Positions 3,959 through 63,941 of a DNA stretch of 64,000 nt are shown one piece after another. The translations under genes and the position numbers were made by a program. The notes below the pieces were generated by a model, which did no database searches, had not been told where the DNA came from, and worked only from the letters and a program-made list of their open reading frames with translations. How positions within the stretch are numbered: the first letter of the stretch is position 1; each line of letters opens with the position of its first letter. Origin of the DNA: an uncultured Bacilli bacterium (lineage in GTDB: Bacteria; Bacillota_I; Bacilli_A; RF39; UBA660); contig CAKOWQ010000001.1 in assembly GCA_934122395.1 (NCBI GenBank), forward strand, positions 125,602 through 189,601, given 5' to 3'.

Positions 3959-6511
3959 ATGAAACGTAGTGAAGTAGATAGGACTAAATTAAGTCCTATG
4001 ATGCAGCAATATTTAGATATTAAAGACAAGTATAATGATACCATTATCTTTTTTCGTCTTGGAGACTTTTATGAAATGTTCTTTGAAGATGCAGTTATCT
4101 GTAGTAGAGAATTAGAACTAGCATTAACTGGTAGAAATGCAGGCCTTGAAGAAAGAGTTCCAATGTGTGGTATTCCATATCATGCTTATATTGGATATTT
4201 AACTAAATTAGTAGATAAAGGTTATAAAGTGGCTATCTGTGAACAACTAACAGATCCTAAAGATACTAAAGGTATGGTAGATAGAGATGTCGTTCAAGTA
4301 ATTACTAAAGGTACTATGCTTGATAATACTTTGAATGAAAAAGATAATAGTTATGTTGGTAATATATATGATTTTGAATATTGTTATGGGGTTACTTATA
4401 CTGATATTACTACCGGATACTTCTATGCTTTAATATTAGAACACGATCAAAATAAACTAATAAAAGAAATAGTTAATCGTAATATTATTGAAGTAATAGT
4501 AAATGATAAAATAGATCGTGAAATAATAAGCGTATTGAGAGACAATTATCATTTATTGGTAACTATTACTGATGGATTATGTGAGGATAGTGAATATAGT
4601 TATTTATATGATAAGATTGATGATATTAGAATAGTAACGGCAGTAAAGCACTTATTACAATACTTGATTGACGTTAAAAAAGGTAATTTATCACACTTAC
4701 AAAAAGTAGAAGTAGTTGATACTAATAAATATTTAACTTTTGATATACATACTAAAAGGAACCTAGAACTTACTGAAACTATTAGATTAGGTGAAAGAAC
4801 TTATTCACTTTTATGGCTACTTGATAAAACTAAAACAGCAATGGGTAGTAGAGCATTAAAATCTAATATTGAAAATCCATTAACTGATGTTAAAGAAATA
4901 AATTCACGATACGATATTATTGAAAAATTACTTACTGAATTTATATTAAAAGAAGAATTGATACGTAATTTAAATGAAGTATATGACTTAGAACGTTTAG
5001 CCGGAAGAATTAGTTATGGTAACTTAAATGCTAGAGACTTGTTACAGTTAAAAAACTCTTTAAAAGTATTACCGGATATAAAAAGAATATTGGAAGAGAT
5101 TAAATATCCTAAGACTATTAATACTTTGGATGATGTATATGATTTATTGGAAAAATCAATTAATGATGATGCTCCTATTACAGTAAAAGAAGGTGGATTA
5201 ATTAAAGAAGGTTATTCTAGTGAGTTAGATGAATTAAAAAGTATTAGTAGTGGTTCTAAAGACTTTATTTTAAAAATAGAACAAGATGAAAAAGAACGTA
5301 CTGGAATTAAAAACTTAAAAGTAGGATTTAATAAAGTATTTGGTTATTATATAGAAGTATCTAAGAGCAATATTCCTTTAATTAAAGATGAGTATGGCTA
5401 CGATAGAAAACAAACTCTAGCTAACTGTGAGAGATTTATTACACCTCTTCTAAAAGAAAAAGAAAATATTATTTTAGGGGCTGAAGAGAAAATAATTAAT
5501 TTAGAATATAAATTATTTATTGAAATACGTGATTATATTCGTGAATACATTGGAATAATTCAAGATGTTTCAAGAGTTATTGCTGAAGTTGATATGATGG
5601 CTTCTTTAGCGACTGTTAGTGAAGAAAATGGTTATGTTAGACCTGTTATTACTAATGAACGAGTAATTTCTATTAAAGATGGACGTCATCCAGTAGTAGA
5701 AAAGGTAAGTAAAAAAGAATATGTACCTAATGATATTATGATGGGAAAAGGTGTTGATATATTACTTATTACTGGACCTAATATGGCTGGTAAATCAACT
5801 TATATGCGACAACTTGCAATTACTGTTATAATGGCTCAAATAGGGTCTTTTGTACCAGCTAAGAGTTGTACTATTCCTATATTTGATAAGATCTTTACAA
5901 GAATAGGTGCTAGTGATGATTTAGTTAGTGGTGAATCTACTTTTATGGTAGAAATGAAAGAAGCTAATAATGCTATTCAAGAAGCTACTCCTAATAGTTT
6001 AATACTATTTGATGAATTAGGTAGAGGAACTGCAACATATGATGGTATGAGTCTTGCTCAGGCAATACTTGAATATATTCATGATAAGATTAAAGCTAAA
6101 ACATTATTTTCAACTCACTATCATGAATTAACAACTCTATCAGCTGATTTAACAAATTTAAGAAACGTTCATGTAAGTGCTATAGAAGAAGATGGCAAAA
6201 TTACTTTCTTACATAAAATAAAACAAGGGGCAGTAGATAAAAGTTATGGTATCCATGTAGCGTCTTTAGCAAAGCTTCCTAAATCTTTAATTGAACGTGC
6301 TAATGAAATACTTGATGTGTATGAAAATAAAAACAATAAAAAGCAACCGTTCGTTCAAACATCGTTATTTTTAAATGCTGATGAAAAAGAACAAGAAGAA
6401 GAGAATTATGTAGAAGAAAAAATAAAAGAAATAGATCCGTTAAAAATGACTCCTATTGAAGCTTTAAATTTCCTATACGAATTAAAAAAGTCTTTAAAAG
6501 ACAAAGAATAA
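3959..6511 (+). CDS. mutS: DNA mismatch repair protein MutS
   Basis: 850 aa. Motifs GPNMAGKSTYMRQ (Walker A), DELGRGT, STHYHEL. N-terminal mismatch-binding domain. Confidence 0.95.
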   Translation: MKRSEVDRTKLSPMMQQYLDIKDKYNDTIIFFRLGDFYEMFFEDAVICSRELELALTGRNAGLEERVPMCGIPYHAYIGYLTKLVDKGYKVAICEQLTDPKDTKGMVDRDVVQVITKGTMLDNTLNEKDNSYVGNIYDFEYCYGVTYTDITTGYFYALILEHDQNKLIKEIVNRNIIEVIVNDKIDREIISVLRDNYHLLVTITDGLCEDSEYSYLYDKIDDIRIVTAVKHLLQYLIDVKKGNLSHLQKVEVVDTNKYLTFDIHTKRNLELTETIRLGERTYSLLWLLDKTKTAMGSRALKSNIENPLTDVKEINSRYDIIEKLLTEFILKEELIRNLNEVYDLERLAGRISYGNLNARDLLQLKNSLKVLPDIKRILEEIKYPKTINTLDDVYDLLEKSINDDAPITVKEGGLIKEGYSSELDELKSISSGSKDFILKIEQDEKERTGIKNLKVGFNKVFGYYIEVSKSNIPLIKDEYGYDRKQTLANCERFITPLLKEKENIILGAEEKIINLEYKLFIEIRDYIREYIGIIQDVSRVIAEVDMMASLATVSEENGYVRPVITNERVISIKDGRHPVVEKVSKKEYVPNDIMMGKGVDILLITGPNMAGKSTYMRQLAITVIMAQIGSFVPAKSCTIPIFDKIFTRIGASDDLVSGESTFMVEMKEANNAIQEATPNSLILFDELGRGTATYDGMSLAQAILEYIHDKIKAKTLFSTHYHELTTLSADLTNLRNVHVSAIEEDGKITFLHKIKQGAVDKSYGIHVASLAKLPKSLIERANEILDVYENKNNKKQPFVQTSLFLNADEKEQEEENYVEEKIKEIDPLKMTPIEALNFLYELKKSLKDKE

Positions 6512-8088: not shown

Positions 8089-8799
8089 ATGAATATTATT
8101 GATGTATTGATTATATTATTAATCCTATGTGCTAGTGTGGTTGGATTTAAGCGTGGAGTATTAAAAGAAATTGTAATGACAGTAGGATTCTTATTAGTAT
8201 TTATTATATCGTTTAAATTAAAAAATCCTCTTGCTGAATGGTTTAGCTTACATCTACCTTTCTTTAAATTTGGAGGAATAGTAGAAGGAGCTACAGTATT
8301 AAATATTATCTTATACCAATTAATTGCATTTGTTCTTGTCTTTGCAGTAATTATGGTTATATTTAATGTAATACTAACAGTAACAGGATTTATTGAAAAA
8401 ATATTAAAATATACTATTATCTTAGGGATTCCATCTAAAATATTAGGAGCTATAGTTGGAGCTATTGAGGGTTATATTATCGCATTTTTTGTTGTATTTT
8501 TATTTAACCAACCTATGTTAGATGTAGGAATTATGAATGACTCTAAGTTTAAAGATCGTATTCTTTCTTCAACTCCAATACTAACAAATGTAGTATCAAG
8601 TGTTGGTGATACCGTTAGTGATGTATATAAACTAATAGAAAATAATAAAGATAATATGGATAGTGACGAATTTAATAGAGAAGCAATAAATATTATGCTT
8701 AAGCATAAAATGATCTCAGTAAGTTACGTTGAAAAATTGATTGATTATGGAAAAATAAGAATTCCTGGAATCGATTCAATACTTAATAATTATAGATAG
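8089..8799 (+). CDS. cvpA: CvpA family membrane protein
   Basis: N-terminus MNIIDVLIILLILCASVVGFKRGV and four TM segments, typical of CvpA. Confidence 0.7.
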   Translation: MNIIDVLIILLILCASVVGFKRGVLKEIVMTVGFLLVFIISFKLKNPLAEWFSLHLPFFKFGGIVEGATVLNIILYQLIAFVLVFAVIMVIFNVILTVTGFIEKILKYTIILGIPSKILGAIVGAIEGYIIAFFVVFLFNQPMLDVGIMNDSKFKDRILSSTPILTNVVSSVGDTVSDVYKLIENNKDNMDSDEFNREAINIMLKHKMISVSYVEKLIDYGKIRIPGIDSILNNYR

Positions 8800-8808
8800 G
8801 AGAAGATT

Positions 8809-9108
8809 ATGATAAAACATTTAACAAATGAAGATTTTAATAGTGAAATAAAAGAGGGTATGGTTTTAGTAGACTTTTATGCTGATTGGTGTGGACCATG
8901 TCGTATGTTATCTCCAGTTATAGAAGAAGTAGCAAAAGAATTACCAGATCTAAAAGTAATTAAAGTGAATGTTGATGAAAGAGAAGATATTGCTAAAATG
9001 TTTGGAGTTATGTCAATACCTACTTTAATATTATTTAGAGATGGTCAAATGGATAAAAAACAAGTTGGGTTTATGCCTAAAGAAGTATTGATGAGATGGT
9101 TTAATTAA
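8809..9108 (+). CDS. trxA: Thioredoxin
   Basis: 99 aa with the WCGPC active site. Confidence 0.92.
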   Translation: MIKHLTNEDFNSEIKEGMVLVDFYADWCGPCRMLSPVIEEVAKELPDLKVIKVNVDEREDIAKMFGVMSIPTLILFRDGQMDKKQVGFMPKEVLMRWFN

Positions 9109-9219
9109 ACACCCTTAAAAAAGGTTGTTTTTTTTATGGAATAATTTACCAAATAAAAACTTAATGGTTAAGGTTTATGATTAACTGTACAGTAAAAAAT
9201 AAAAAAGAGAATAAGTATC

Positions 9220-9249
9220 TTGCCAAATTCCTAGGGGGGGTGGTATAGT
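9220..9249 (+). promoter_or_regulatory. Sigma-A-type promoter with a G7 homopolymer in the spacer (putative phase-variation switch) for the 9296 gene
   Basis: TTGCCA (-35), 18-nt spacer aattcctaGGGGGGGtgg, then TGgTATAGT (extended -10). A similar architecture with G11 sits upstream of the paralog at 62394–63884. Confidence 0.55.
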
Positions 9250-9295
9250 AATTAAAGATAAATATAATTCGGAGCAATAATGAAAGAGAAGTATT

Positions 9296-10750
9296 ATGAA
9301 TAAGAAACAAATAATAATAGTTGCAATGTGTTTAGTAGTATGTTTAATGATAGTAGGATATTCTATACTTGGACAGAACCTAAATATAGATGGAACGGCA
9401 GATATAGAGTCCAATTGGAATATATTATTTACTAGTGTAACAGCAAAAGAACAAACAAGTGGTGCAACATTTACTAGTACTCCTACAATAAGTGGAACAA
9501 CTCTAACATTTGGATTAGATTTAAAAGCACCAGGAGATGGAGTAAAGTTAGATGTAACAGTAGCAAATAAAGGAACATTAAATGCAATAATAAATAATAT
9601 TGAAGCCAAAAAGGGTGCTAATGAAGTAGTAAAGATAGAAATAACAGGAATAAAGAAAGGCGACAAACTAGGAAAAGGTGAATCAAAGACATTTGAAATT
9701 TATATAACATTTGATTCATCTGTAACAGATCAGCCAATAATGGATAGTGATATGTTAAGCGTGAGTGTAGACTTTGTCCAAGATGTAGGACAGACAATTA
9801 CAAGTGAAGACTTAGAAATAGTATCAATGGGATTAAGAAAGAAGATATTAAGAGATAATGAAGCACAAGCTGATACAAATATAGATTTTTCACAAATAAG
9901 TAGTGATACAAATGGGAAGGGCTTGTATTATACTTCAACAAACACTGAAGATAATAAAATAACATATTATTTTAGAGGAGCAGTAGAAAACAATTATGTA
10001 ACATTCGCTGGATTCACATGGCGAATAATAAGAATAAACGAAGATGGTAGCATAAGATTAATAAAGAAAGACACAATAGACTCTACAAAATTTGATAATG
10101 ATGATGGAGATGCAGCCTATGTAGGATATATGTATGGAACGCCGGACTCGTCGACATACGAGGAAACGCATAAAAATATTAATTCTAGTACTGTAAAAGA
10201 AGTGGTTGATACGTGGTATGAAAGTAATTTAATTGATTATACTTCGTTTTTATCAGATTCAGGTTTCTGCGGGGATAGAAGTATGGCTTCTAGTGCAGGT
10301 GTGTGGAGTGATATAGATACTGCATTAGGTTACGGATTTAATTATACATATTATGGAGCTAATAATAGATTAGATATAAACAGTACTCCACAATTTAAAT
10401 GCCCACAAGAAAACGACCTGTATACAACAACAACTGCCACGAAGGGTAACAAAGCATTAACATATCCGATAGGTTTAATAACAGCAGATGAAGCATCGTA
10501 TGCAGGAGCAGTACGTAACATATCAAACAAAACCAATTATTTAGCAGCAGCAGGTATATTCTGGACAATGTCACCGGCATCTTCTAGTAAAAAAGCTTAT
10601 GTCTTACGGGTACACACCGATGGCCGTATAGCTGCCGAAAACATTTTAACTGATAGATATGCTCGTCCAGTTATAAATCTCAAGCCAACAATAGAGATAA
10701 CAAAAGGTGATGGAACCCAAAATAATCCATATGTTATTAAAACAAACTAA
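9296..10750 (+). CDS. Secreted TasA/camelysin-like N-terminal domain protein with a large conserved C-terminal domain of unknown function (long paralog 1)
   Basis: Sec signal MNKKQIIIVAMCLVVCLMIVGYS, then a core TLTFGLDLKAPGDGVKLDVTVANKGTLNAIINNI resembling TasA/CalY L-x-PGD…N-G-S-L-A-I. About 85% nt identity in sampled stretches to the 62394–63884 gene. Confidence 0.55.
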   Translation: MNKKQIIIVAMCLVVCLMIVGYSILGQNLNIDGTADIESNWNILFTSVTAKEQTSGATFTSTPTISGTTLTFGLDLKAPGDGVKLDVTVANKGTLNAIINNIEAKKGANEVVKIEITGIKKGDKLGKGESKTFEIYITFDSSVTDQPIMDSDMLSVSVDFVQDVGQTITSEDLEIVSMGLRKKILRDNEAQADTNIDFSQISSDTNGKGLYYTSTNTEDNKITYYFRGAVENNYVTFAGFTWRIIRINEDGSIRLIKKDTIDSTKFDNDDGDAAYVGYMYGTPDSSTYEETHKNINSSTVKEVVDTWYESNLIDYTSFLSDSGFCGDRSMASSAGVWSDIDTALGYGFNYTYYGANNRLDINSTPQFKCPQENDLYTTTTATKGNKALTYPIGLITADEASYAGAVRNISNKTNYLAAAGIFWTMSPASSSKKAYVLRVHTDGRIAAENILTDRYARPVINLKPTIEITKGDGTQNNPYVIKTN

Positions 10751-10777
10751 AAGCGTTAAATTAATTAACGCTTTTTT
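10749..10777. terminator. Bidirectional intrinsic terminator
   Basis: aaaagcgttaa-attaa-ttaacgctttttt hairpin between convergent genes. Confidence 0.6.
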
Positions 10778-13626: not shown

Positions 13627-15408
13627 ATGAGTAAAATAAAATTAATGAGTGAAGACTTAGCTAATAAAATAGCAGCAGGTGAAGTAGTTGAAAGAACTAT
13701 GAACGTTGTTAAAGAATTAGTAGAAAATGCAATAGATGCTAAAAGTACCTCAATAAAAATTGATTTAATAGATAGTGGAGTTAAAGAAATATCTGTTACG
13801 GATGATGGAGTAGGGATGGATAAAGATGATGCTGTTTTGGCATTTTCTAGACATGCTACTAGTAAATTAAAGACTTTAGAAGATTTATTTAATATTGATA
13901 GTTTAGGTTTTCGTGGCGAAGCACTTCCATCTATCGCATCAGTTAGTAATGTAACTTTAAAAACTAGTGATGGAGTTACTGGCACTGAAGTTGTTATTCA
14001 TGGAGGAGAAATAATTAGTGTTAATTCTAGTGACTTAAAAAAAGGAACTAAAATAACTGTTAGTGATCTTTTCTATAATACTCCAGTTAGATTAAAATAC
14101 TTAAAGAATTTATATATAGAACTTGCTAATATAGTTGAATATGTTAATAAAATGGCTTTGTCTTTTCCTAATATTAGATTTGTTTTAACTAATAATGAAA
14201 AAGTACTTTTAAATACGGATGGACAAGGTAACTTACTTAAAGTTATTTATAGTATTTATGGGCTTGATGTTTCAAGAAAAATGATTAAGATCTCTGGTGA
14301 GAATAAGGATTATAGAATAGAAGGATATGTATCTTATCCTGAAGTTACTAGAGCAAGTAGAAATGTTATAACAACACTTGTAAATGGACGCGTAATTAGA
14401 AATAATGAATTAATTAGAACTATATTAGATAGTTATCACACATATATACCAGAAGGTAAAAATCCAATAGTGGTATTGAATATTGAGGTAGATCCATACT
14501 TGATAGATATTAATATTCACCCAACTAAAATGGATATTAAGTTTTCAGAATTTTCAGGATTAAAAGAACTTATTACTACTACTATAACTAAACAATTAGA
14601 AAATATTAATTTAATTCCTAAAGTTGAAGTAGCTACTTATAAAGATGTTAAAGTTGAGAATGGTACAACAGACTTAAAAAATATAATTGATAGTTATATT
14701 GAATCTAAAACACCTTCTCCTACATTAGAAAAAACATATGAAAATATAGAAGAAGTGACATTAGATTTTAGTGTTAGTGAAAATAGTGATATTAAAGAGC
14801 ATGAGGGTGAGGGTAGTGAATTTCGTGTTAAAAAGATGTATCCCGTTGGATTAGTGCATGCTACTTATATTATTGCTGAGAATGAAGATGGAATGTATAT
14901 AATAGATCAACACGCTGCTAATGAACGAATTAATTATGAAAAATATTTAAAAGCAATGGGTACCCATGATAATAAAATGATTGATTTATTAGTACCTATT
15001 AAAATTGAACTTCCTAATAATGATTATATTATTTTAAAAGAACATTGGGATCTATTAGAAGGCCTAAATTTTATTGTTGAAGAGTTTGGAATAAATACCA
15101 TATTAATAAGGAGTCATCCTTTTTGGTTACCTAATTATAATGTAGAAGAAGCAATAAGACGTATTATTGAGATAATAGTATCAAAAGAAGCTTTTGATAG
15201 TTATAAGTTTACAGAGAAGGTTGCTACTACTTTAGCTTGTAAAATGAGTATTAAAGCTAATGATCATATTTCTCTTGAACAAATGGAATATTTGCTTGAT
15301 ACTTTAAGAAAGTCAGAAAACCCATTTACTTGTCCACATGGTAGACCTACTATTATATCTTATTCAAAATATGAACTTGAAAAAATGTTTAAAAGAGCAA
15401 TGAACTAA
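13627..15408 (+). CDS. mutL: DNA mismatch repair protein MutL
   Basis: 593 aa. GHKL ATPase N-terminal motifs (AAGEVVER…VKELVENAIDA, DDGVGM) and a C-terminal dimerisation domain. Confidence 0.93.
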   Translation: MSKIKLMSEDLANKIAAGEVVERTMNVVKELVENAIDAKSTSIKIDLIDSGVKEISVTDDGVGMDKDDAVLAFSRHATSKLKTLEDLFNIDSLGFRGEALPSIASVSNVTLKTSDGVTGTEVVIHGGEIISVNSSDLKKGTKITVSDLFYNTPVRLKYLKNLYIELANIVEYVNKMALSFPNIRFVLTNNEKVLLNTDGQGNLLKVIYSIYGLDVSRKMIKISGENKDYRIEGYVSYPEVTRASRNVITTLVNGRVIRNNELIRTILDSYHTYIPEGKNPIVVLNIEVDPYLIDINIHPTKMDIKFSEFSGLKELITTTITKQLENINLIPKVEVATYKDVKVENGTTDLKNIIDSYIESKTPSPTLEKTYENIEEVTLDFSVSENSDIKEHEGEGSEFRVKKMYPVGLVHATYIIAENEDGMYIIDQHAANERINYEKYLKAMGTHDNKMIDLLVPIKIELPNNDYIILKEHWDLLEGLNFIVEEFGINTILIRSHPFWLPNYNVEEAIRRIIEIIVSKEAFDSYKFTEKVATTLACKMSIKANDHISLEQMEYLLDTLRKSENPFTCPHGRPTIISYSKYELEKMFKRAMN

Positions 15409-20078: not shown

Positions 20079-20603
20079 ATGAATAAGAAAACAATTATGG
20101 CAGTAGCATTATGCGGAATGTTAGCTGCTATGGCAGTTGTTTATGCGGCATTCCAAACTACATTAACGGTAACTGGTACAACAACTCAAAGTGGTAACTT
20201 TAGTTTGCAAATTCTTGCAGAAGCAGCATCAGTAACAGGAACTGCAGGGTTAACTGGCGGAACAGCTCCAACAGCAACATGTACAAATACATCTGGATCT
20301 ACTACAGGAACTATGGCAGCAAAACTATATCAACCAGGAGATACTGTAACATGTTCTTATAAAGTAAAGAATGCTGGAACACTAAAAGCAAAAGCAAATG
20401 GAAATTATAGTTGTAGTCCATCATCACTTGCTAGTCCATTCTCTAGTTCAGTAACATGGAAGAAATCAGCACTAGCTAAAGGAGCTACAAGTGCTGCAGG
20501 AGAAATTACTATGACAATTACATACTTATCAAGTATAACTAGTCAACCAAGTACAACTAGTGCAAGTATTACATGTAATTTCCCATATACACAAGATATT
20601 TAA
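20079..20603 (+). CDS. Small secreted TasA/camelysin-like Thr/Ser/Ala-rich protein (short paralog A)
   Basis: Strong RBS AAGGAGG. Signal …AMAVVYAAF|QTTLTVTGT (AAF motif as in TasA WAAFND). Core LYQPGDTVTCSYKVKNAGTLKA. Confidence 0.55.
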   Translation: MNKKTIMAVALCGMLAAMAVVYAAFQTTLTVTGTTTQSGNFSLQILAEAASVTGTAGLTGGTAPTATCTNTSGSTTGTMAAKLYQPGDTVTCSYKVKNAGTLKAKANGNYSCSPSSLASPFSSSVTWKKSALAKGATSAAGEITMTITYLSSITSQPSTTSASITCNFPYTQDI

Positions 20604-20615
20604 TAGGAGGATATA

Positions 20616-21221
20616 ATGAAAGATAAAAAGGTATTATTAATATTAGTTTGTACTGCTGTATTAGTTCTAATGAGCGTAGCATTTGCAGCATTTAATCAAA
20701 CATTAAAAATAAATGGTACTGGTACTATTTCATCAACTTGGAAAGTTGAATTAGATACTGATACTGCTAATACTAAATGTACTGTATCAAGTAAGGATAG
20801 TGCTAATCCCACTACGTGTAACGTTACAGCGTTAAGCACTTCTGCATTAACTGCTAATATCAGTTGGGCTTCACCAGGGGACTCTGCTACAATCACTGCA
20901 AGAGTTAAAAATGGTGGTACACTTAATGCTAATGCTAGCATGTCTGCTAAGATAGGATTAACTAGTGCTGCTTCTTCTGCTTGTACAAATACTACAGCAA
21001 CAGCAAATTATACACAATATGCTGCTGATGGTAAAACTACTAGTGGAACAGCTAAAACTTTAACTGCAACAGCTCAAACAATTGGACCAATGAAAATATT
21101 AACACATGCAACATATAATTATGGTATTTATACAATTGTTATTACATATAATGCATCATCAACTGGAGCAGCTGGCGCATGTACATTCACAGGTACTGTT
21201 ACTGCAACACAAGCAGCTTAA
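20616..21221 (+). CDS. Small secreted TasA/camelysin-like Thr/Ser/Ala-rich protein (short paralog B)
   Basis: RBS AGGAGG. Signal …MSVAFAAF|NQTLKINGTGTISSTWKV. Core ISWASPGDSATITARVKNGGTLNA. Many N-x-S/T sequons. Confidence 0.55.
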   Translation: MKDKKVLLILVCTAVLVLMSVAFAAFNQTLKINGTGTISSTWKVELDTDTANTKCTVSSKDSANPTTCNVTALSTSALTANISWASPGDSATITARVKNGGTLNANASMSAKIGLTSAASSACTNTTATANYTQYAADGKTTSGTAKTLTATAQTIGPMKILTHATYNYGIYTIVITYNASSTGAAGACTFTGTVTATQAA

Positions 21222-22765: not shown

Positions 22766-23416
22766 ATGATTTTATTGGGTGAGATAATGAATTTAGGAAT
22801 TAAACGTACTAAGAATAATATAATGAAACAAAAAAAGCTATATCTATTTTTAATTGGATTAGTAATAGTTGGTATTATAGCAGGAATCTTATTTTGGTTT
22901 GTAATTAATAATGAAGACAAGCTATTGGTAACTAAAAATTTAAATAATTTTTTTGAATGTATAAAAAAAGGAAATGCAATTAATTATTGGGGGTCTTTAT
23001 TTAATTCATTAGTTACAGGCTTAATATATATAGTATTAATATGGTTATTGGGTATTTCAATTGTTGGCTTACCAATAATCTTGATTATTATAACAATTAA
23101 AAGTTTTATTGTAGGTTTTTCTATATCATCTATAATAGCTAGTTATGGATTTAAAGGAATATTAGGAGCTTTTGTATATACTTTTCCTCATCAAATAATA
23201 TTCTTATTGTTATTAATACTACTTGGCTTTTATTCATCATCTTTTTGCTTTAAGTTATTTAAATATTTATTTTTAAAGCAAGCTATTAATTTTAAAGATG
23301 CAATGCGTAAGTATTTTAAAATTTTGATTATTTCTTTAATCGTTGTATTGTTAACTTCTATATATGAAACGTTTATCGCAACTTATTTTATAAAGCTATT
23401 TACTTTATTAATTTAA
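22766..23416 (+). CDS. spoIIM: SpoIIM-like integral membrane protein
   Basis: About 200 aa with five TM segments, SpoIIM-like size and topology. The true start is probably internal, at MNLGIKR or MKQKKLY. Confidence 0.45.
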   Translation: MILLGEIMNLGIKRTKNNIMKQKKLYLFLIGLVIVGIIAGILFWFVINNEDKLLVTKNLNNFFECIKKGNAINYWGSLFNSLVTGLIYIVLIWLLGISIVGLPIILIIITIKSFIVGFSISSIIASYGFKGILGAFVYTFPHQIIFLLLLILLGFYSSSFCFKLFKYLFLKQAINFKDAMRKYFKILIISLIVVLLTSIYETFIATYFIKLFTLLI

Positions 23417-62393: not shown

Positions 62394-63884
62394 TTAATTA
62401 GTTTTTATAATGTATGGGTTATTTTTAGTTCCGTTTCCACCCATGATTTGAGCATCAAATTTTAAATTGATAACTGGTCGAACATCCCATTCACGATAAG
62501 AACCATCGTAACTCGTTTGTCCCTCGTCTACTACAAGGCATACATAAGCAGTTGAAGAAACATAATTAGGCGATATCATCCAAAAGCTTATTCCCGAATT
62601 CATATAATAACCATTATTTTCCCAGCCACTAATTCCTCCTGCATAATTCGTTTCATCAGCCGTTATTAATCCGATTGGATAATCTAGAGCTTTATTACCT
62701 TTATTAGTCGTCTTAGTTGTATATAAATCATTTACTTGAGGACATTTGAATTGTGGCTTCTTCCTAGTCCAATTTTTAAATGATTCTAGTCTTGCTGTAG
62801 ATCCATAAACCGTTTCGTTAACACCATATCCTAAAGCAGTATCACCTGGCTTCCAAATATTAGGGGCAGATGCTACACTTCTATCTCCACAGAATCCTGA
62901 ATCAGCTAAATAACTTGAATAACTCATTAAATTATTTTGATACCATGTATCTATAAAAGTCTTTATTGTACTTGAATTAATATTTGCATGTGTCTCTTCA
63001 TACGTTGAAGCACCAACTGTCCCATACATATATCCTACATATGCATTATCAGTATCATCCTCATTAAACTTGCTCTTGCCTATCGAATCTTGCTTTATTA
63101 ATCTTATTGAACCATCTTCATTTATTCTTACTATTCTCCATGTGAATCCTGCGAATGTTACATAGTTATTTTCTACTTCTCCTCTAAAATAATATGTTAC
63201 TTTATTATCTTCGGTATTGGTACTTGTATAATATAATCCTTTACCATTTGTATCACTACTTATCTTAGAAAAATCTATACTTGTATCCGCTTGTGCTTCA
63301 TTGTCTTTCAATATTTTTGCTGCTAGTCTTGTTGGTACTATTATAGTATCATCTGTTACTATCGTTTGTCCTGTATCTTGTACATAATTAATATTTATTG
63401 TTAATGTACTATCTATTAAATTAGGTTGGCTTGTTACATTGTTATCATATGATATTGTTACATCAAATGTCGTTGTTGTTTTACTTGCTAATTTGTCTCC
63501 CTTTTTAATACCTGTTATTTCAAAATTTATTGCATCACTTCCAGTCTCGCTTGCTGTTATATCATCTATTACTGCATTTAATGTCCCTTGATTTGCTACT
63601 GTTATTTTGTAGACTATATTGTCTCCTGGGCTTGTTAAGTCTATATTGAATGTTGCTGTTGTTCCACTTGCTGTTGGTGTTTCTTTTATCTTTATTCCAC
63701 TTGTTTTGAACACCTCTGTTATGTCTGTAAATACCACTTTCCAGGTTGACTCTATACTTGATGTTCCTGTTATTGTTAGTTTTGTTGCAAAGGCTGCATA
63801 CCCTACTGCCATTATACATATTAAGCTACACATTGCTATTATCAATATCTTCTTACTTTTCATATACTTTTCTTCCATCTCCAT
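62394..63884 (-). CDS. Secreted TasA/camelysin-like N-terminal domain protein with conserved C-terminal domain (long paralog 2)
   Basis: 496 aa. Signal …AMCSLICIMAVGYAAF|ATKLTITGT. Core ATFNIDLTSPGDNIVYKITVANQGTLNAVIDDI. C-terminal domain collinear with the 9296 gene. RBS GGAGG favours the second or third Met as the start. Confidence 0.55.
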   Translation of the reverse strand: MEMEEKYMKSKKILIIAMCSLICIMAVGYAAFATKLTITGTSSIESTWKVVFTDITEVFKTSGIKIKETPTASGTTATFNIDLTSPGDNIVYKITVANQGTLNAVIDDITASETGSDAINFEITGIKKGDKLASKTTTTFDVTISYDNNVTSQPNLIDSTLTININYVQDTGQTIVTDDTIIVPTRLAAKILKDNEAQADTSIDFSKISSDTNGKGLYYTSTNTEDNKVTYYFRGEVENNYVTFAGFTWRIVRINEDGSIRLIKQDSIGKSKFNEDDTDNAYVGYMYGTVGASTYEETHANINSSTIKTFIDTWYQNNLMSYSSYLADSGFCGDRSVASAPNIWKPGDTALGYGVNETVYGSTARLESFKNWTRKKPQFKCPQVNDLYTTKTTNKGNKALDYPIGLITADETNYAGGISGWENNGYYMNSGISFWMISPNYVSSTAYVCLVVDEGQTSYDGSYREWDVRPVINLKFDAQIMGGNGTKNNPYIIKTN

Positions 63885-63910: not shown

Positions 63911-63941
63911 ATTATACCCCCCCCCCCTAGGGATTTTGCAA
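63911..63941 (-). promoter_or_regulatory. Sigma-A-type promoter with a G11 (C11 on the + strand) homopolymer in the spacer (putative phase-variation switch)
   Basis: Minus strand: TTGCAA aatcccta GGGGGGGGGGG TATAAT, spacer 19 nt. Conserved with the 9220–9249 promoter, which has G7 and an 18-nt spacer. Confidence 0.55.

Follow-up and report, generated by a model that had tools for sequence, protein, structure and literature searches.

Results

A G tract in the promoter of a putative secreted-protein gene

The window analyzed here, the whole 64,000-nt stretch of DNA from an uncultured Bacilli bacterium, reads TTGCCA-aattccta-G7-tgg-TATAGT at positions 9220-9249, with 18 nt between the -35 and -10 hexamers (Table 1). 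The sequence-only reading that drew attention to this site had given exactly this order of elements and this spacer, and it was right in every detail. A consensus promoter scan ranked the site first among promoter-like sites between positions 8700 and 11500 (10/12 matches, with a TG before the -10), and the ATG of a 484-aa open reading frame lies 47 nt downstream. The unit is monocistronic and ends at a bidirectional terminator-like hairpin. The fixed part of the spacer and the first Gs of the tract together form a palindrome, CCTAGG, from position 9226 onward, which is CCCTAGGG in the consensus of the cassette family described below. Rfam gave no match at the promoter site; its matches in the window (a T-box, an L21 leader and two tRNAs) all lie elsewhere. 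A sigma-54 or other alternative promoter reading was considered and rejected, as we found no GG-N10-GC geometry upstream of the TTGC.

G/C homopolymers of this kind are very rare in the window, as had been claimed: in 64 kb at 27.6% GC there are only two G or C runs of at least 6, and both are the promoter tracts of paralogous genes. G7 matches number 6 in the window compared to a mean of 0.24 in 100 dinucleotide-preserving shuffles, none of which reached 6. The second tract belongs to a 494-aa paralogue (paralogue 2) that is 57% identical to the first (paralogue 1) and matches P0006 at 493 of 494 residues. The earlier reading had placed a paralogue with the same promoter and a G11 tract at 63.9 kb, and we found it there as TTGCAA-aatcccta-G11-TATAAT with a 19-nt spacer, a length not called by our scan, which takes spacers of 16-18 nt. 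The paralogue 2 tract is also G11 in L050 and L051, so that three assemblies are alike.

Table 1. Coordinates of the two promoter cassettes, their genes and the mismatch repair genes in the window.
Feature	Position	Strand	Basis or detail
mutS	3959-6511		translation read by eye
-35-like hexamer TTGCCA	9220-9225	+	5/6 match to TTGACA
Fixed spacer part AATTCCTA	9226-9233	+	cassette consensus AATCCCTA
Interrupted G tract G7-T-GG, 10 nt	9234-9243	+	G7 at 9234-9240
Extended -10 element TGG-TATAGT (TGn and -10 hexamer)	9241-9249	+	consensus promoter scan; TGG at 9241-9243, TATAGT at 9244-9249
Conserved 5' leader	9271-9303	+	sequence read
GGAG Shine-Dalgarno	9271-9274	+	within the 5' leader of paralogue 1
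Upstream ORF MKEKYYE*, 7 codons	9280-9303	+	ATG at 9280 to TAA at 9303; ATG AAA GAG AAG TAT TAT GAA TAA
Paralogue 1, 484-aa putative secreted or surface protein	9296-10750	+	ATG at 9296
Bidirectional terminator-like hairpin	10749-10775	.	terminator-like by scan
mutL	13627-15408		translation read by eye
Paralogue 2, 494 aa	62394-63878	-	ATG at 63878
Paralogue 2 promoter cassette	63911-63941	-	19-nt spacer; TTGCAA at 63941-63936, AATCCCTA, G11 at 63927-63917 (C11 on +), TATAAT at 63916-63911

The 5' leader of paralogue 1 has a further peculiarity, in that the GGAG is followed by a short upstream open reading frame that overlaps the main ATG out of frame. The same arrangement is found in L002, L003, L024 and L026, which share with the window a common 1-nt insertion in the leader, while the corresponding ATG of most other paralogues is read in frame with the gene (MEEKYMKSKK...). 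The insertion and the overlapping upstream frame suggest translational coupling or re-initiation in this group.

Elsewhere in the window, a 201-aa protein (20616-21221) is 29.5% identical to the first 97 residues of the paralogue family, a stretch that comprises the signal or anchor and the start of a beta-sandwich; this protein has a weak DUF4307 match and its gene is also present in L026, at the same distance. It is preceded by a 174-aa open reading frame (20079-20603) that has no Pfam match.

The encoded protein family

Searches of Pfam and NCBIfam returned no family match to the paralogue 1 protein, although it has more than 3,500 database relatives, nearly all of them unnamed. The name 'TasA-like' given by the sequence-only reading could not be upheld: an assignment to TasA or camelysin (Peptidase_M73) was backed neither by Pfam or NCBIfam nor by a PDB profile search or fold searches, and TasA was absent among the fold matches. 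An AlphaFold model built with 28 homologues (mean pLDDT 80) predicts a hydrophobic helix at the N terminus, an Ig-like beta-sandwich of eight strands and, at the C terminus, an alpha/beta domain of C-type-lectin-like fold. On this model the product looks surface-exposed and ligand-binding, and such products are the usual cargo of phase-variable switches. The C-terminal domain (residues ~190-484) resembles the Thomasclavelia ramosa IgA protease, the matched part apparently being the C-type-lectin-like N-terminal domain of the protease. That domain holds a structural zinc bound through Cys, His and Asp, and the family-invariant H292, C325 and C369, together with several Asp residues, could bind a structural zinc likewise.

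A shared promoter cassette across genomes

The promoter of paralogue 1 is one of about 35 copies of a cassette with the consensus [terminator hairpin and T-run, or AT-rich lead-in]-TTGCMA-AATCCCTA-Gn-TATAAT-(~30-nt leader)-(C)GGAG-start. Its -35 (TTGCCA or TTGCAA), 8-mer and -10 are nearly invariant among the copies. When one genome per species was scanned, the motif turned up in just two MAGs, both labeled 'uncultured Bacilli bacterium', at 16 sites, with 4 in the MAG from a Hadza human gut and 12 in that from a rabbit. Metagenome contigs yielded 11 further sites, and look-ups of homologous proteins gave more cassettes upstream of further paralogues. The 31 complete pure tracts comprise 9 of G10, 20 of G11 and 2 of G12, corresponding to spacers of 18, 19 and 20 nt; none of the 31 is G9 (a 17-nt spacer) or shorter. 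In 261 kb of sequence (the window and the fetched loci, the latter picked because they carry the cassette), 33 of 34 G or C runs of at least 7 lie inside a cassette. Tract purity is kept across many paralogues in at least three lineages despite a 28%-GC genome. A cassette match in a viral contig (L036) was set aside as a chance occurrence inside a phage repressor-like coding sequence.

Many cassettes adjoin an upstream terminator hairpin at the -35, so that in these copies no other promoter can precede the tract. We therefore ruled out a role for the tract in a 5'-UTR or in transcriptional slippage. A distant relative (L043) keeps G12-TATAAT with a degenerate -35 and reads TTTCCT-G12, in which the palindrome is lost. 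Tract control does not appear to extend to all family members: P0118, a 44%-identical paralogue, has an ordinary promoter without a G tract, identical in six assemblies (L037-L042, 2320-2500). P0118 also has a weak CBM_X2 match and adjoins a gene for a sigma-70-family factor.

Of the 12 cassette sites in the rabbit MAG (CANQDV01, L005-L019), at least 11 are terminal or nearly terminal on their contigs, with some uncertainty over where L012 falls, and at least seven contigs stop within the G run or 4 nt past it. The cause of these breaks could be either the repeat or tract heterogeneity. As proof of heterogeneity within a sample they were discarded as ambiguous, since a repeat with differing tract lengths alone breaks de Bruijn graphs. 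In either case the repeated cassette and its tracts fragment metagenome assemblies at these genes, and the family is systematically fragmented or lost in short-read MAGs.

Tract length differs in identical backgrounds

The locus of paralogue P0014, whose exact sequence occurs in many samples, allowed tract length to be compared among seven independent assemblies, six fetched with P0014 (L044-L049) and one from the species-representative MAG (L017). L044-L049 are free of mismatches over ~2,900 nt (1,503 nt of gene and 1,400 nt of flank upstream of it). A pure tract lies directly 3' of P0014, in the promoter of the next paralogue, and the 1,500 nt that lead up to this tract are free of mismatches in all seven assemblies. 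This pure tract reads G11, G10, G10, G12, G11 and G11 in L044-L049 and G11 in L017, lengths that come from short-read consensus assemblies in which one-G errors are possible at homopolymers of 10 or longer. Between L045 (G10) and L017 (G11) the tract is the sole difference, as the 1,500 nt before it and the 1,400 nt after it contain 0 mismatches; L047 (G12) likewise agrees with L044 and L048 (both G11) throughout 1,500 nt on the upstream side and ~125 nt on the downstream side. P0014's own promoter, 1.6 kb from the varying tract, is interrupted (TTGCCA-ATTCCTTA-GGGGGAGGGGG-TATAAT, G5AG5, 19-nt spacer), and it is the sole interrupted tract we found besides G7-T-GG. The G5AG5 tract is the same in 7/7 assemblies. 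In L048 (3029-3060) we also noted an A-to-T change just 5' of the pure tract (CCCTT-G11 rather than CCCTA-G11) in an otherwise identical 3 kb, which could reflect either a true SNP or an error at the edge of the homopolymer.

At orthologous loci with flanks 84-89% identical, tracts differed by one G in 3/3 comparisons while the promoter motifs were identical (L028 G11 versus L035 G10, L023 G10 versus L032 G11, and L015 G11 versus L029 G12 or longer). Strains that carry a pure tract at the thioredoxin-linked locus of paralogue 1 (flanks 97-98.5% identical) are all G11. Because these tracts do not differ, and because the paralogue 2 tract is G11 in three assemblies, pure-tract turnover is apparently not fast enough for every comparison to show a change. 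The proposal of a slipped-strand tract and the comparison of tract length across strains that went with it thus gave a divided answer. Pure tracts of the family differ between strains (G10, G11 and G12 within identical flanks), while the flagged G7-T-GG has one and the same form in the window, L001 and L021, and the idea did not gain support at the very copy for which it was raised. Because pure tracts vary in identical DNA and the interrupted tract 1.6 kb away does not, the cassette family appears to behave as a slipped-strand contingency system.

We considered whether these length differences could be sequencing or assembly artefacts laid over tracts that are in fact fixed. All of the data are short-read metagenome assemblies, in which poly-G trimming and stutter are known problems, and many contigs end in or beside a tract, as if assemblers struggled there. 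Consensus calls normally give the modal length, however, and three assembly pipelines applied to many samples agree on G10-G12, with the same assemblies making 0 errors in the G5AG5 tract and across ~3 kb of flanking sequence; the contig ends, moreover, are also explained by a cassette repeat with differing tract lengths. We consider an artefact of this kind very improbable.

Real differences in length could still be incidental if the tract were a conserved structural or protein-binding element, either an operator at CCCTAGGG or a rigid spacer for an activator. Such an element would account for the strong G11 mode (20/31), the narrow range of 10-12 and the lack of a 17-nt allele, for the conservation of the palindrome CC(C)TAGG(G) at the 5' boundary of the tract, and for the G11 common to strains with 97-98.5% identical flanks. 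It fits less well with length differences in backgrounds that have zero other differences, with the loss of the palindrome in the distant copy L043, or with the persistence of 10-12 uninterrupted Gs, which a binding site does not need. This explanation also overlaps with slippage-driven switching, since a change in length would still alter the phasing of an activator, as tract length does at the Bordetella fim promoters. On balance we regard a binding element with incidental length differences as improbable, and a slippage-prone promoter spacer as the better account of the pure tracts.

The flagged promoter as a derived, interrupted allele

Given this pattern, the G7-T-GG tract stands out as an exception. 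In L025 (flanks 98.5% identical), L003 (97.4%) and L024, the corresponding thioredoxin-linked locus reads AATCCCTA-G11-TATAAT, and in L026 a gene 98.3% identical to that of the window also stands behind G11-TATAAT. Compared to these G11 copies, the window promoter carries three substitutions in 30 nt, which are a C-to-T in the 8-mer, a G-to-T in the tract and an A-to-G in the -10. By this comparison, G7-T-GG is derived from a pure G10-G12 cassette tract, and the longest run at this copy is 7, down from 10-11. The G7-T-GG form is identical in the window, in L001/L020 (Hadza) and in L021 from another sample, with only a few SNPs in the gene; this invariance is that of three assemblies, to which a look-up through the thioredoxin neighbor added L021 only, and the exact paralogue 1 protein is present in 21 other contigs.

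The interrupting T sits at -15 and creates TGG-TATAGT, a TGn extended -10, where pure cassettes have GGG-TATAAT without TGn. This element is evidently used by the host RNA polymerase and is typical of its housekeeping promoters, because the L21-leader (TTGACT-17-TGA-TAAAAT), tRNA (TTGATT-17, TGT-TATTAT) and T-box leader (TGA-TATAAT with a weak -35) promoters of the window all carry it. The T should therefore lessen the dependence of the promoter on the spacing of its -35. The flagged allele is probably a stabilized promoter, perhaps locked on, and as such probably constitutively active. Locking on would be no general rule for interrupted tracts, as G5AG5, likewise interrupted, has a fixed spacer of 19 nt rather than 18.

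That the G7 run is itself an active slipped-strand switch, toggling the flagged promoter on and off, was the reading from which this work started. The run does sit in the spacer of a good promoter, deletion of a single G would bring the spacer to the optimal 17 nt, variation in tract length is demonstrated for the cassette family, and G7 is at the lower edge of the tract lengths usually counted as potentially phase-variable. However, slippage rate drops steeply as a run shortens, the tract is invariant in three assemblies, and G5AG5, the other interrupted tract, is invariant in 7/7 assemblies beside a varying pure tract; the TGn created by the interruption should also cut the dependence on -35 spacing through which a switch would act. 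Slippage can still occur in the G7 run, only less often, but we consider it unlikely to be an active switch, and we favor the reading that G7-T-GG is a derived and stabilized allele of a switchable cassette.

Comparing the window (9100-10750) to L003, L024 and L025, we found flanks 97-98.5% identical around a gene that is only 81-84% identical (78% in protein). L026 has the gene of the window and the same downstream neighbors, with a SecA-like gene upstream in place of the thioredoxin gene, and L028 and L035 have their upstream flank in common and carry different genes. Coding regions thus appear to have been swapped between loci through the common promoter and 5' region, with the cassette as the recombination junction.

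Discussion

A proposed model of spacer-length switching

We propose that the pure G10-G12 cassette is a switchable promoter, of which the flagged G7-T-GG copy is a derived and stabilized form and the paralogue 2 copy a form that is still switchable, and we assign this model as a whole a probability of about two in three. In these uncultured gut Bacilli of low GC content, the cassette would drive many dispersed genes of one family, whose two-domain products are predicted to be secreted. Its pure G tract would be a hypermutable simple-sequence repeat, at which replication slippage adds or removes single Gs and so shifts the spacing of the -35 and -10 among 18, 19, 20 and presumably 17 nt. Through such random shifts, transcription of every paralogue would go up or down independently of the others, which would make the family a contingency-locus 'phasome'. 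At the flagged copy, a G-to-T change would have split the tract into G7-T-GG, leaving a shorter slippable run and a TGn extended -10 at an 18-nt spacer, and thus a stabilized, probably constitutive promoter rather than an efficient switch. Paralogue 2 at 63.9 kb, with its G11, would keep the switchable form.

We infer that tract length controls transcription from established promoter biology, in which spacing changes initiation (Neisseria fetA, porA and opc, and Mycoplasma hyorhinis vlp). The consensus scan passes the 18-nt form of the cassette and not the 19-nt form, and most copies have the 19-nt spacer, which is predicted to be weak. That G11 prevails and G9 is missing would be compatible with a population in which the typical cell keeps the majority of paralogues off or weakly expressed.

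A broader claim would be that uncultured commensal gut Bacilli maintain at least a dozen dispersed lectin-like surface proteins behind hypermutable cassettes as a phasome, in which a single G-to-T change can lock a copy by ending the repeat and making an extended -10 at once, and the cassette serves as the junction for swapping genes. We advance this fuller picture tentatively and would rate its chances as slightly under even.

Comparison to known systems

Neisseria poly-G and poly-C promoters appear to be the closest known system in sequence chemistry. In porA (poly-G) and in opc and fetA (poly-C), as here, a G/C homopolymer of ~10-14 nt lies between the -35 and -10, and its length differs between strains. 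The Neisseria genes encode surface proteins and their expression is graded by spacing, as is predicted for the cassette family. Full expression of porA comes with the tract that gives a 17-nt spacer, compared to the 18-20 nt that we observed. Neisseria is a Gram-negative pathogen with such tracts at single loci, whereas here a shared cassette precedes many paralogues in a Bacilli commensal that encodes MutS and MutL. The spacer-length mechanism has been described for fetA, porA and opc, and fetA tracts in six gonococcal strains range from C10 to C14 (PMC5320596).

In architecture the closest analogue is vlp of M. hyorhinis, a surface-protein multigene family with a homopolymer in the spacer of each promoter. 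In work credited to Yogev 1991 and to Citti and Wise 1995, the vlp genes reportedly share a conserved promoter and 5' region with a spacer homopolymer and are expressed on or off independently and in combination. M. hyorhinis is, like the host here, a low-GC organism of the Bacilli lineage. Its tracts are poly-A and its genes clustered, whereas the tracts here are poly-G and the genes dispersed around the chromosome, and the vlp products are lipoproteins with repeats rather than proteins with Ig-like and C-type-lectin-like domains. The variable lipoprotein family has been described (PMC4198240).

Two further systems share parts of the arrangement. Like the cassette, Bordetella pertussis fim2 and fim3 have a homopolymeric C/G promoter tract before paralogous genes. 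There, a poly-C of ~13-15 nt modulates transcription of the paralogous surface-structure genes; that tract lies between the site for an activator (BvgA) and the -10, whereas the cassette here comes without a known activator. In Bifidobacterium breve the pilus tract is said to be intragenic and to act by frameshift, as opposed to the promoter tract here. B. breve resembles our host in being a gut commensal with a G tract, and replication slippage at the G tract switches its sortase-dependent pilus, a surface structure (PMC9187656).

The class of mechanism is thus well known; for its occurrence in gut Bacilli, our literature searches covering RF39, Erysipelotrichaceae, Firmicutes and gut Bacilli found no prior description. 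Multi-locus phase variation through simple-sequence repeats is known almost entirely from pathogens, and a 2025 review treats as an open question whether this restriction is real or a bias of the databases (PMC11868660). The cassette family described here, with poly-G promoters in many copies, comes from commensals, the uncultured gut Bacilli of Hadza humans and of a rabbit. If the broader claim above holds, the family would bring multi-locus contingency of the Mycoplasma or Neisseria style to a non-pathogenic, mismatch-repair-proficient member of the human microbiota. The mutS and mutL genes of the window flank the paralogue 1 locus; because both proteins are encoded, poly-G variation would arise in a mismatch-repair-encoding background. 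Pure and interrupted alleles offer a natural contrast of putatively switchable and frozen promoters, and the cassette sits before an uncharacterized family with a C-terminal domain similar to the lectin-like part of a gut IgA protease.

Several neighboring genes bear on the nature of the host and of the family. That the host is a spore-forming Bacilli or Erysipelotrichales-like organism is suggested by sporulation-type genes, namely SpoIIM in the window (22766-23416), a SpoIIGA-type peptidase in L043 and YlbD_coat in L050. In L034 (118-3982), the paralogue P0087, which has a G10 promoter, lies directly downstream of T2SSF (PilC/ComGB-like) and prepilin peptidase genes, and an N_methyl pilin-like gene is found nearby in L002, so that the family may be linked to a type IV pilus or pseudopilus.
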